Origin: Escherichia coli | GTDB lineage: Bacteria; Pseudomonadota; Gammaproteobacteria; Enterobacterales; Enterobacteriaceae | Direction: 5' to 3' (one strand) | Length of the DNA: 64,000 nt | NCBI RefSeq assembly: GCF_003334255.1 | Contig: NZ_QOWU01000002.1 | Shown: one piece after another, positions 1 through 42,628 of the stretch | Layout of the letters: every line of letters begins with the position of its first letter | Position numbering within the stretch: the first letter of the stretch is position 1 | Made by a program: the position numbers and the translations under genes | The notes under the pieces: generated by a model | Database searches by the model: none | Told to the model about the DNA's origin: nothing | Seen by the model: only the letters and a program-made list of their open reading frames with translations

Positions 1-77
1 ACACCTGCCGAACCCTGGACAATGGGACCGCCATACTGAGTCATATCTCCCTGACGCGCCGCTGGTTTTCCGCTCAT
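1..77 (-). CDS. rhsD: 5' end of Rhs-family protein gene (first ~25 codons; gene continues beyond window start)
   Basis: Reverse complement of 1..77 reads ATG AGC GGA AAA CCA GCG GCG CGT CAG GGA GAT ATG ACT CAG TAT GGC GGT CCC ATT GTC CAG GGT TCG GCA GGT = MSGKPAARQGDMTQYGGPIVQGSAG, recalled RhsD N-terminus; downstream of ybbP in same orientation. Confidence 0.75.
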   Translation of the reverse strand, partial: MSGKPAARQGDMTQYGGPIVQGSAG

Positions 78-507
78 ATAAAGTGCCCTTTTAGTTATTG
101 TTCATATCCCTGTGTTAGCAACAAAAAAAAATAAAATGACACACAAGACCAGCTAATGTATTTATATATTTTTCACATAAACTTATTTGTTCTCAATCAA
201 CAACAACTGTTATTACAGGTCACTTTCAATATTTTATTAAACTAACATTTTTAGCACAGATGAATTCATCATCAACAAATTCACTATATGGATAATATCC
301 ATTCAACGCATATGATTTATGATTTTATTAGTCTGAGTTATTTTTGTAGGGCTATATTTAAAATCAATAAACTCCACCGATTCAGATTAATATCAGCAAT
401 AGAAAGATAGGAAATCACCAATTCAATAACATCATCAATGAAACATATTGTAGAATTAATTTAAACAAGGCGTTCCATTCAACCAGAACGCCCCTTATTT
501 ACTCTCA
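78..507 (-). promoter_or_regulatory. AT-rich intergenic region between ybbP and rhsD (rhsD upstream/promoter region)
   Basis: 430 bp strongly AT-rich, no credible ORF, lies directly 5' of rhsD start on minus strand. Confidence 0.5.
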
Positions 508-2922
508 TCACCCCGCAAACTGCCTGAACAGCGCCTTACCCTTAACCAGTCTCGCGCCCAGCCAGCCGCCGAAAAGCGACAGCAGCAGCGCACCGCTGCA
601 CGGCAGAACAATCCACAATCGCCAGTCTGGCTCCCACGGGAAATCAAACACTTTCGCCTGCAACACTGCCAGTGCCGTTTCCGCACCAATTGCGGCCACC
701 AGGCCGGAAACAAACCCAAGCATGGCGAACTCACACCACAATGTCGTGCGCAGCAGTTTTTTCCCCGCACCGAGTGTGCGCCATACCACCAGCTCCTGAT
801 GACGCTGGCGCATTCCCACCTGCACCTGTGCCAGCAACAGCAACATACCGCAGGCGGTGACCAGCACCACCATCACCTCCAGCGCCCGACTTACCTGCTC
901 CAGCACCTGACCGACCTGTTTTAAAATCGCGCCAATATCTAACAGGCTAATGGTCGGGAACTGGCGGTTGAGTTGCGTCAACATGCCGTTGCCATTCTCC
1001 CAGCGGAAACTGGTAAGCCAGCTCTGCGGTTGCCCGTCTAATGCCCCTTCCGGGAAAATAAAATAGAAATTAGGCCGCAGACTTTCCCAGTCCACTTTGC
1101 GCAGGCTGGTCACTTTAGCGCGGAACTCCTGGGTATCGCCCATAAAAGTCACGGTATCACCGAGGGCAACGTTTAAGCGTTTCGCCAGCCCCTCTTCCAT
1201 CGACACTTCATCGGCTTTTGGCGGCCAGTTACCGGCGACAATCGGATTATGATCGGGCCGCGTATTTTGCCAGGTAAGATTGAGTTCGCGATTAAGCGCC
1301 TCATCTTCATTACCTTCTGTCGGCTTATCGTTAATCGCCGTCAGCCGCGCCCGCACTACCGGATAAAATGATTCCGGGACTATATGATGTTCCGCGAGGA
1401 ACGCTTTTAGCGGTGCTACCTGTTCTGTGGCGATGTTAATTAAAAAGTAGTTCGGGCTTTCTGGCGGTAGCTGCTGCTGCCAGCGGTCGAGCAGATCGCC
1501 ACGCAATACCAGCAACAGCGCCAGCAGCATAAAGGAGAGCGAAAATGCCGAAAGCTGACTTAACGTTGACCACGGCTGACGTAACAGGCGGCTAACCGCC
1601 AGGCGCAGAGGCAGCGATTTCAGCGTCATGCGGCGAAGTACATTCAGCAGCATCCAGCCCAGCACACCGCACAGCAAAGCCAGTACTACCGCGCCCGCCA
1701 GCACCGCCCAAAGCAGCATGCTGCCACCCATTAATCCGGCGAGCAGCAGCACAACCACCACACTGACAATCGGCAGATAAAACTTCAGCGGCCAGACGTT
1801 CGCTACCACATCATTACGTAATACGCGTAAAGGCTGCGTTGCCAGCAACAAGCGATATGGTCGTAGCCCCACCAGCAGCGAGATGACCGTCATGGTGCCA
1901 AGCGCCCACAGCCACGGCCAGAGGCTGGCTGGCGGTAGTGCAGCAGGCAGAACGGGCTTGAGCAGCACCATCAACACGTTTTCGAACAACAGACCTATGG
2001 CCCCACCGGTAACGGCTGAAAGCGTCAGCACCATCAACCACTGACCGACGATTAGCTTACGCAGTTGCGCTCGCCCTGCCCCCAGCGTTTTGAGGATCGC
2101 CACCAGATCGTAGCGACTGCGACAGTAATGATTCATCGCTACCGCCACCGCTGCCACTGCCAGCAGCAAGGTCAGAAGCGCCGAAAGCAGCAGGAACTGT
2201 TGCGAGCGTTCCATCGATCGCCCCAGCGCGCCTTCGTCCTGTTCCAGACCGTACCAGCGTTGTTCGGGTTTAAGCTGAGGTAACAACCATTTCTCATAGC
2301 CGTCGAGCTGGTTCTCGTTGCCGCCGAATTTATAACGCCAGGTGACCCGACTCCCCGGCTGCACGGCTCCGGTTTTATCGACATCCGCCAGATTCATCAT
2401 CAGACGCGGAGCCATCTGGAAGGGGTTAAAACCGGAATCCGGTTCCTGAATCACTTCTCCGGCAATCCGCAAGGTGGCATCGCCCACGTCAATGGTGTCG
2501 TCCGTTTTCAGGTTAAGCAGTGCCATCAGGCGTGGGGCCAGCAATACGCTGCCCGCCTGCGGTTTCAGGCCAGGGGGATTAGTTTGCAGATCGCCATACA
2601 TCGGGTAGATATCATCCACCGCTTTGACGTTCGCCAGCTGCGGTGTGTCGCCTGCAAAGGTCATTGTGGCGAAAGTCAGCTGCTTGCCGACTTTCAGGCC
2701 GCGCTTTTGCGCTTCCTCCAGCCACGCTTGCGGCACTTCGCGTGAACTGCGCAACGCCCGATCGCCCGCCATAAACTCACGGCTTTGCTGGCTTAAGCCC
2801 TTCTCCATGCGATCGCTGATATTGCCCAGCGCCAGCACGCAGGCCACCGCCAGGCTTAGCGCCAGCCAGACAATTAATAGCGACGGCGAACGCCATTCGC
2901 GCCAGAACCAACGTGCAATCAT
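508..2922 (-). CDS. ybbP: MacB/FtsX-type ABC transporter permease (two FtsX domains)
   Basis: 804-aa ORF, length and sequence match recalled K-12 YbbP; 4-bp overlap with ybbA. Confidence 0.93.
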   Translation of the reverse strand: MIARWFWREWRSPSLLIVWLALSLAVACVLALGNISDRMEKGLSQQSREFMAGDRALRSSREVPQAWLEEAQKRGLKVGKQLTFATMTFAGDTPQLANVKAVDDIYPMYGDLQTNPPGLKPQAGSVLLAPRLMALLNLKTDDTIDVGDATLRIAGEVIQEPDSGFNPFQMAPRLMMNLADVDKTGAVQPGSRVTWRYKFGGNENQLDGYEKWLLPQLKPEQRWYGLEQDEGALGRSMERSQQFLLLSALLTLLLAVAAVAVAMNHYCRSRYDLVAILKTLGAGRAQLRKLIVGQWLMVLTLSAVTGGAIGLLFENVLMVLLKPVLPAALPPASLWPWLWALGTMTVISLLVGLRPYRLLLATQPLRVLRNDVVANVWPLKFYLPIVSVVVVLLLAGLMGGSMLLWAVLAGAVVLALLCGVLGWMLLNVLRRMTLKSLPLRLAVSRLLRQPWSTLSQLSAFSLSFMLLALLLVLRGDLLDRWQQQLPPESPNYFLINIATEQVAPLKAFLAEHHIVPESFYPVVRARLTAINDKPTEGNEDEALNRELNLTWQNTRPDHNPIVAGNWPPKADEVSMEEGLAKRLNVALGDTVTFMGDTQEFRAKVTSLRKVDWESLRPNFYFIFPEGALDGQPQSWLTSFRWENGNGMLTQLNRQFPTISLLDIGAILKQVGQVLEQVSRALEVMVVLVTACGMLLLLAQVQVGMRQRHQELVVWRTLGAGKKLLRTTLWCEFAMLGFVSGLVAAIGAETALAVLQAKVFDFPWEPDWRLWIVLPCSGALLLSLFGGWLGARLVKGKALFRQFAG

Positions 2923-3605
2923 GCTTCCTCCTGCAACTGCCCGTTCACCAGCCGTAAGCAGCGGTCGCAGCGTGCCGCCAGTTGCAGGTCGTGGGTCACC
3001 ATAATCAACGTGGTGCCATGTTCACGGTTGAGGGAAAACAGCAGGTCGGCAATTTTATCGCCCGTCTGGCGGTCAAGGTTGCCGGTGGGTTCGTCGGCAA
3101 ACAGCACATCAGGTCGACCATTAAAGGCTCGTGCCAGCGCCACTCGTTGCTGTTCACCGCCGGAAAGCTGTGCCGGAAGATGATCCAGACGTTTACCCAG
3201 CCCTAACTGTTCGAGCAACGCTTTCGCCCCGTTACGACTTTCCGCGCTACTCTCACCGCGCAGCAGAGCCGGAAGCTCGACGTTTTCCAGCGCGTTAAGG
3301 GTAGGAATTAACATAAATGACTGAAAAACAAAGCCGACGTGCTTCGCGCGCAACTTTGCCCGCGCTTCTTCGTCCATATTATGTAGCGGTTGTCCCACCA
3401 GACTCACTTCGCCACTGCTGCCGTCATCAAGCCCGGCGAGGATCGCCAGCAAGGTTGACTTACCCGATCCCGACTCGCCCACCAGTGCGATGGTCTCGCC
3501 ACGTTTGACAACCAGCTCAACTCCGGTGAGGATGGAGAGTTCATGCTCCCCCTGACCGACGGACTTCTTAAGATGATGAACTTCAACAATGTTTTCCGCT
3601 GGCAT
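2919..3605 (-). CDS. ybbA: ABC transporter ATP-binding protein
   Basis: 228-aa ORF with Walker A GESGSGKST and ABC signature LSGGEQQR. Confidence 0.93.
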   Translation of the reverse strand: MPAENIVEVHHLKKSVGQGEHELSILTGVELVVKRGETIALVGESGSGKSTLLAILAGLDDGSSGEVSLVGQPLHNMDEEARAKLRAKHVGFVFQSFMLIPTLNALENVELPALLRGESSAESRNGAKALLEQLGLGKRLDHLPAQLSGGEQQRVALARAFNGRPDVLFADEPTGNLDRQTGDKIADLLFSLNREHGTTLIMVTHDLQLAARCDRCLRLVNGQLQEEA

Positions 3606-5016: not shown

Positions 5017-5913
<897 letters not shown>

Positions 5914-11697: not shown

Positions 11698-11888
11698 CTT
11701 TTGTTAACTCCTTTTTATAGATGCGGGAGGTAATTCCTCACCCCGGTGCCGATTTTCAGGCATCCTGATTTAACTTAGCACCCGCAACTTAACTACAGGA
11801 AAACAAAGAGATAAATGTCTAATCCTGATGCAAATCGAGCCGATTTTTTAATCTTTACGGACTTTTACCCGCCTGGTTTATTAATTTC

Positions 11889-38931: not shown

Positions 38932-42083
<3,152 letters not shown>

Positions 42084-42101
42084 TACAACGTGTAATCACT
42101 A

Positions 42102-42127
42102 AGGCCGCGTAAGCGGCCTTTTTTATG
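42102..42127 (+). terminator. Intrinsic terminator downstream of acrB
   Basis: Hairpin aaggccgcg-taa-gcggcctt followed by ttttat. Confidence 0.8.
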
Positions 42128-42628
42128 CATAACCTACGAACATTAAGGAGTAATTGAACCACCAACTCAGGATCTCATACGAAAACCAGTATTAACCACG
42201 GATAAAATTCATAAAAAATACTGATTGTTAGTTAATTTATATTAAGTAGCGCTAATAGATTTAATAATCCATAATCATTTAGAGGCTATTCTTAATTATT
42301 TGCGGTAATTCTTTATTCATTCCTCGGTTATTACGTCATATTCAGAGCAATCCTGGTATTAGTGTCACCAATTTCATCTGGCGATAATCCTGAAATGTTA
42401 TGAATAGTTCGAGCAAACTGCTTTTACCTGCTGCGGGTTAGTGCTAGTATGAAAAAGTGAGTCCTGTCCCGCTTCCTTCCTAATTGTAATTTTTCGTAAT
42501 AATGCGATGAAAACCTGCAAAGAGTGGCTTATAGTTAAGCTAACAAACGAGAGGGCAAGTCCAGGTCAGTAAGTTTTTTCCATCCCGAAAGGTGTCCGTT
42601 AGTTCAACCGCTAAGAAGGGGACGCGTT

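Follow-up and report, generated by a model that had tools for sequence, protein, structure and literature searches.

The window, a stretch of 64,000 nucleotides of Escherichia coli DNA, opens inside an rhsD gene on the minus strand. Its first bases (77..1) hold the rhsD 5' end, codons 1-25 plus 2 nt, beginning ATG AGC GGA AAA CCA GCG GCG CGT and continuing onward, and they translate as MSGKPAARQGDMTQYGGPIVQGSAG. This translation agrees with RefSeq, where the same 77 bases are labelled rhsD in records with DNA identical to the window, supporting the original prediction that they encode the RhsD N-terminus. Upstream of the ATG (77-75), reading of the sequence finds an in-frame stop codon at 104-102 and no alternative start codon in between. 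A Shine-Dalgarno-like AAGGG on the same strand (86..90), 8 nt upstream of the ATG, is a plausible ribosome-binding site for rhsD.

Between the rhsD ATG and the ybbP stop codon (508-510) lies a spacer of 430 bp (78-507) with a GC content of 28.4%, against an average of 52.3% (sd 4.5 over windows of 430 bp). Across all 64 kb this is the GC minimum for that length, and the highly AT-rich region that had been described ahead of the gene is thereby borne out, coordinates included. On the basis of composition and genome distribution, positions 78..504 (28% GC) are assigned as an RhsD-specific upstream region that forms part of an accessory element. Only one other stretch of the window falls below 36% GC over 430 bp, the acrB-tomB spacer at about 42,030-42,620; the tomB/acrB spacer is an H-NS-flagged promoter site (PMC3946193).

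On the far side of the spacer, ybbP (508..2922, minus strand), an 804-aa ORF identified from the reading frame and annotation, forms the core-genome flank of the element and is co-directional with and upstream of rhsD. Just after ybbP, in element-specific DNA, a scan match and folding identified a terminator-like hairpin (467..494, minus strand), which is stable (-16.1 kcal/mol, z = -3.98) and carries a weak T-run (GTTTAAATTA). Further along the window come ybbP, ybbA, tesA and other genes expected at this chromosomal site in E. coli. On the plus strand, tesA can be read from 3543 as its longest ORF, which shares its first bases with the 5' end of minus-strand ybbA (ending at 3605); starting tesA at 3576, as RefSeq does, still leaves an overlap of 30 bases.

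The extent of the element was determined from a comparison set of 5426 complete E. coli genomes. A megablast search with window 1-1500 matched ybbP in 5421 of the 5426, while in about 2500 genomes the match starts only at 498-505. The AT-rich leader is present in 2907/5426 (median one copy, at most 2), and a sensitive blastn search of the same genomes found no diverged second copy. Together with the empty sites that were examined, these counts support the view that the Rhs gene is accessory-like. Junction sequences and local alignments place the ybbP-side edge of the RhsD element at 498..505, the point from which Rhs-less genomes again match the window. Because this match begins only there, the AT-rich stretch lies wholly inside the element. 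In local alignments, the junction next to ybbP falls at window 498-502 and the one next to mnmH lies 2-7 bp past its stop codon, the latter at 5208-5213 of locus L007 from strain MB06232, in which window position 1 corresponds to L007 12001. The RhsD element is therefore about 7.3 kb long, and window 1 to about 504 is all element DNA. The window had been thought to begin at the 5' boundary of the Rhs element; its start is instead some 500 bp inside.

The bordering genes, mnmH (ybbB) and ybbP, are convergent core genes. In the three Rhs-less genomes that were examined, the gap between them is 58 bp in FDAARGOS_1292, 240 bp in 23CRST026 (with REP-like sequences) and 712 bp in 0H24. No terminal inverted repeats or target-site duplication were found at the element ends, and the element replaces the interior of a short ancestral mnmH (ybbB)-ybbP spacer with no clean interruption. 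The spacer of 0H24 (L003, NZ_CP081774.1, 11295-12006) has no RhsD element and carries an annotated dinQ-like type I toxin gene at 11706-11789, bordered by two copies of AAAAAAACCGACATGACAGT[C/T]GGTTT. Two copies of CAGTCCTCATCTAGCA and REP-like sequences are also found in this spacer. In some strains, then, another small toxin module occupies this intergenic position.

The remainder of the element lies beyond position 1 and was studied in MB06232, the closest public record. Window 1-25000 aligns to this strain as a single piece, with an identity that rounds to 100.0%, and over the first 1,500 bases there is no difference at all. Its rhsD (L007 12077..7797) is intact and encodes 1426 aa. The NCBIfam RHS_core model (NF041261) matches this copy at 2785.8 bits (cut-off 2000), with aa 1-1258 aligned to model positions 1-1261; the window itself contains only aa 1-25. 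Past the N-terminus, the Rhs core and its YD repeats are present in MB06232, as six TIGR01643 stretches plus the Rhs-associated core domain. Pfam finds DUF6531 at aa 46-123, the RHS domain, and eight RHS_repeat matches at E<=0.001 along with weaker ones. The boundary of core and tip carries the motif PxxxxDPxGL, in the form PLQQIDPMGL (aa 1249-1258), and the C-terminal tip is a DUF4329 (Tox-JAB-2) domain (E = 2.4e-37). The next gene, ybbC, has an Imm-NTF2-2 immunity fold (E = 6.8e-26), and these two families, DUF4329 being Tox-JAB-2, were paired by Zhang et al. (PMC3482391). The original prediction had placed the toxin tip and immunity gene just outside the window; they are indeed off the window, but they are not immediately adjacent, lying about 3.8-4.7 kb past position 1.

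Past ybbC, the gene order in MB06232 is a displaced orphan tip, a split ybbD, an rhs 5' remnant and a truncated ylbG. The orphan Rhs tip retains 86 aa of the core end, and a 280-nt direct repeat connects it with the main rhsD. GC content differs strongly by part: the core has 63.4%, the tip 36.5%, ybbC 30.6% and the leader 28.4%. A GC-rich core with an AT-rich tip is the classical Rhs element composition (PMC2935791), and the RhsD element has this composition of Hill-type Rhs elements. No vgrG or tss genes were found within 13.5 kb around the locus. Other features of the far end include a 95-nt copy of the rhs 5' end (L007 5747-5841, 79% identical, ATG changed to ATT) beside the truncated ylbG, which resembles what is left of a second rhs gene start at the distal limit of the element. 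In the K-12/MB06232 type (L007 6208-6698), the ybbD-like gene that follows the orphan tip is broken into two pieces of 86 + 57 aa, and the corresponding ORF of strain 99E2750 (L009 5325-5816) is intact at 163 aa.

The N-terminal piece that starts in the window might dock on a VgrG spike. A literal P-A-A-R motif occurs at RhsD aa 5-8, inside the window, and the N-terminus corresponds to the RHS_core model from position 1 onward. The Pfam PAAR_motif model aligns to aa 3-20 with an E-value of 0.26, below significance, and in two PAAR proteins, 9rce_c (E = 0.12) and 4jiv_D (E = 0.67), the final repeat aligns with aa 2-29, again short of significance. These weak matches are mutually consistent and suggest a single PAAR-like repeat at the RhsD N-terminus. 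Further in, aa 48-145 align with the start of the Tse5 shell chain (E = 3.6e-16), whose sequence opens with PVNPMLG; this fits a short N-terminal piece that precedes the shell.

The leader is 98-100% identical across K-12-like, O157, 99E2750 and WCHEC96200 genomes, in which it differs only in poly-T length and at a few points. The K-12-type tip with ybbC occurs in 1896 genomes, with an identity of 99% or more in 1892 records. In O157:H7, leader (99% identical) and core are the same, but they are joined directly to the tip that is orphaned in MB06232-type genomes. The two tips share 226/228 aa, and the same 86-aa ybbD-like ORF follows. The RhsD copies of O157 and WCHEC96200 read PVNGIDPLGL and then continue into a different tip, which together with the DUF4329 tip described above upholds the claim that this Rhs gene encodes a polymorphic toxin with a variable C-terminal end. 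The joining of the O157:H7 core to the MB06232-type orphan tip is consistent with C-terminal displacement as described by Jackson et al. (2009, PMC2935791), in whose list of conserved Rhs loci this site is 'locus 3'.

Several strains carry disrupted versions of the locus. For example, TW10598 (L031 6209-9000) has an IS66-family insertion within the leader, some 87 bp ahead of the ATG (window ~164), which parts rhsD from its proposed promoter and most of the AT-rich stretch. In AL.H8 (L006 11249-12042), IS1 stands in place of rhsD through ybbD following an IS1-mediated deletion, and only window 466-507, with the ybbP terminator hairpin, is left beside ybbP. In another strain, IS1 is inserted after rhsD.

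Homology with K-12 rhsA, rhsB and rhsC begins at the ATG, and a plasmid-borne rhs gene (H120) matches window 1-77 only. Upstream, the leaders of rhsA and rhsC are clearly related to one another (score 106; shuffles averaged 10.4). The rhsD leader gave no signal against rhsA or rhsB in local alignments evaluated with dinucleotide shuffles, and only a marginal one against rhsC (10/300 shuffles equally good). A shared leader or promoter box, ATATAAATA, which appeared in a MAFFT alignment of the rhsA/B/C/D upstream regions, was rejected as homology on the basis of the shuffle-tested local alignments. Exact-pattern scans of representative genomes from about 100,000 species returned 0 matches for the leader/ATG junction, and for the terminator stem only chance matches in unrelated organisms. 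The E. coli representative genome presumably lacks the RhsD element, which is a likely reason for the empty species scan.

Much of what can be said about the AT-rich spacer comes from K-12. The 430-bp spacer is 100% identical to that of K-12-derived strains, so published K-12 data apply to the spacer of the window. In the flanking ybbP and the DNA around it, divergence from K-12 is about 0.8% (128 mismatches in 15.5 kb), and strain G6/7 shows 1 difference from the window in 15,500 bases. This flank divergence indicates a source strain other than K-12, one whose backbone resembles those of MB06232 and G6/7. With the U00096.2 coordinate of the rhsD start as reference, the published promoter island 522099_304 (ybbP/rhsD) converts to approximately 160..463 of the window, about 2 nt either way. 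In Table 1 of Panyukov & Ozoline (2013, PMC3661553), this island is one of 78 'promoter islands', which are described as forming open complexes, and it is tied to foreign genes. The same table gives the ybbP/rhsD island as H-NS bound in all the ChIP data sets compared.

Genomic SELEX by Shimada et al. (PMC3946193) placed an RpoD-holoenzyme site, flagged HNS, in the ybbP>rhsD spacer. For rhsD they propose the sigma-70 promoter TTAATA-17-TGTAAT, a pattern that the window matches exactly once (212..240, minus strand). This promoter sequence is invariant in 5 diverse strains. The interpretation best supported by these data is that the AT-rich spacer is a promoter region carried by the element and silenced by H-NS, where binding is taken from the literature and the silencing of rhsD is our inference. 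Sequence scans add little. The high-affinity H-NS motif TCGATAAATT, allowing <=2 mismatches, has two matches in the AT-rich stretch, which is not an enrichment, and its 77 matches across the whole window against 54.7 expected are uninformative.

Taken together, the observations are very probably explained by the end of an RhsD element that contains the start of a polymorphic toxin gene and the element's own promoter and leader under H-NS. Window 1-504 is the ybbP-proximal end of a roughly 7.3-kb RhsD accessory block in the mnmH (ybbB)-ybbP spacer. RhsD consists of a short, weakly PAAR-like N-terminal piece, a YD-repeat shell, the PxxxxDPxGL processing motif and a swappable C-terminal toxin. 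This toxin, of the DUF4329/Tox-JAB-2 family, is predicted to be active and to be neutralised by the ybbC product, and delivery would occur via a type VI secretion system. The 427-bp AT-rich stretch would serve as the element's own promoter and leader region. Given the K-12 literature, it is expected to bind RNA polymerase in vitro and to be covered by H-NS in vivo, and rhsD is most likely kept silent by H-NS in ordinary growth.

An alternative is that the element is a decaying relic, in which rhsD is no longer a working weapon, is without a delivery system, silenced and prone to disruption, and the 5' end in the window is the start of a pseudogene, perhaps an incipient one. Supporting this, G6/7, which differs from the window at only one of 15,500 bases, has a frameshifted rhsD (L001 9797-14077). 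Here one base is gained at nt 687 (+1) and one lost at nt 1607 (-1), with the result that the reading frame stops at codon 268; the gene is annotated as frameshifted, and the change may be genuine or stem from faulty sequencing. The IS66 insertion in the leader, the IS1-mediated deletion and the IS1 after the gene in other strains point the same way, as does the splitting of ybbD (86 + 57 aa against 163 aa intact elsewhere). To our knowledge, K-12 also lacks a type VI secretion system, which counts in favour of decay. Against it, the rhsD ORF is intact over its 1426 aa in the closest record, the tip and ybbC are nearly invariant in those 1892 records, and the leader is conserved at 98-100% across distant lineages. 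Decay is considered unlikely.

Alternatively, the AT-rich stretch could be inert filler with no promoter, so that rhsD, if transcribed at all, would depend on read-through from ybbAP across a leaky terminator. Since rhsD is co-directional with ybbAP, following ybbP on the same strand, read-through transcription is possible, and the hairpin at 494..467 is poor in its T-run. A simple promoter consensus scan found 2 sites in the spacer against 1.8 in composition-matched shuffles, which is no excess, although its algorithm differs from PlatProm, used by the authors of the promoter islands. In addition, the fold of the leader RNA (205..60, z = -0.16) gives no hint of structure. Nevertheless, the RpoD holoenzyme binds this spacer in genomic SELEX, where a promoter was proposed (PMC3946193), and the spacer is listed in Table 1 of PMC3661553 among islands described as forming open complexes. 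The stability of the hairpin (z = -3.98) also argues against a leaky terminator. This reading as inert filler is judged very unlikely.

The least probable reading, for which we see hardly any chance, is that the stretch conceals an unannotated small gene or small RNA: it is strongly conserved and has short ORFs of 21-40 aa on both strands (e.g. 288-410, plus), but an Rfam search of window 1-1200 at E<=1 gave zero matches, no feature is annotated in the stretch among the RefSeq matches listed, ORFs of that size are expected in DNA of 28% GC, and sequence variation is too low to test coding constraint. The small ORFs in 78-507 were set aside as genes, being explained by base composition.

A more specific role can be imagined for the roughly 330 bp of RhsD-unique, AT-rich DNA at window about 170-504. 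It has no paralogue upstream of rhsA/rhsB/rhsC, and exact-pattern scans did not match it in representative genomes of other species. This DNA might be a dedicated silencing pad carried along with the element: H-NS recruited by it would hold the toxin gene off on arrival, and it would also supply the ybbP terminator. If true, the stretch would be more than a leftover promoter region, but we regard this as a speculative idea with little likelihood.

Comparison with known systems places the locus firmly within described biology. The K-12 RhsD element (rhsD-ybbC-ylbH-ybbD-ylbI-ylbG, from ybbP to ybbB/mnmH) has the same site, gene order and leader as the window type. The K-12-like and MB06232 RhsD proteins differ at 11/1426 residues, and there is no difference of substance from the K-12 element. 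The ybbP/rhsD spacer is itself one of the K-12 promoter islands listed in Table 1 of PMC3661553, whereas the consensus scan performed here showed no promoter excess.

Other relatives include the type VI Rhs effectors Tse5 of P. aeruginosa (8cp6) and RhsA of P. protegens (7q97), which have a homologous YD-repeat shell (E = 1.4e-122 and 4.4e-86, respectively). They share with RhsD the layout of a short N-terminal piece, a shell and a toxin. However, the toxin domain of RhsD differs (DUF4329), its N-terminal piece is only weakly PAAR-like and its secretion is predicted. Unlike the Tse5 and RhsA systems, the RhsD locus in MB06232 has no adjacent vgrG or chaperone gene. The Salmonella SPI-6 rhs main/orphan locus (PMC7043789) resembles RhsD: behind its full-length rhs gene lies an orphan tip with a shared core end, and H-NS silences this DNA. 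That locus lies inside a type VI secretion island, whereas RhsD is isolated between housekeeping genes.

In summary, the observations made in the window have already been described for the E. coli RhsD element; they are accurate but ordinary, and nothing in them is new. Beyond correct annotation, their significance is slight. For annotation, window 1-504 should be treated as accessory RhsD DNA and the sequence from the ybbP stop codon as core genome, with the toxin and immunity genes off the window. The striking AT-rich stretch is already explained in the literature as an H-NS-bound promoter island, listed as such in Table 1 of PMC3661553, before a horizontally acquired toxin gene. The locus is also a clear case of Rhs tip displacement at a fixed site, in which K-12-type and O157-type genomes combine the same leader and core with different tips.
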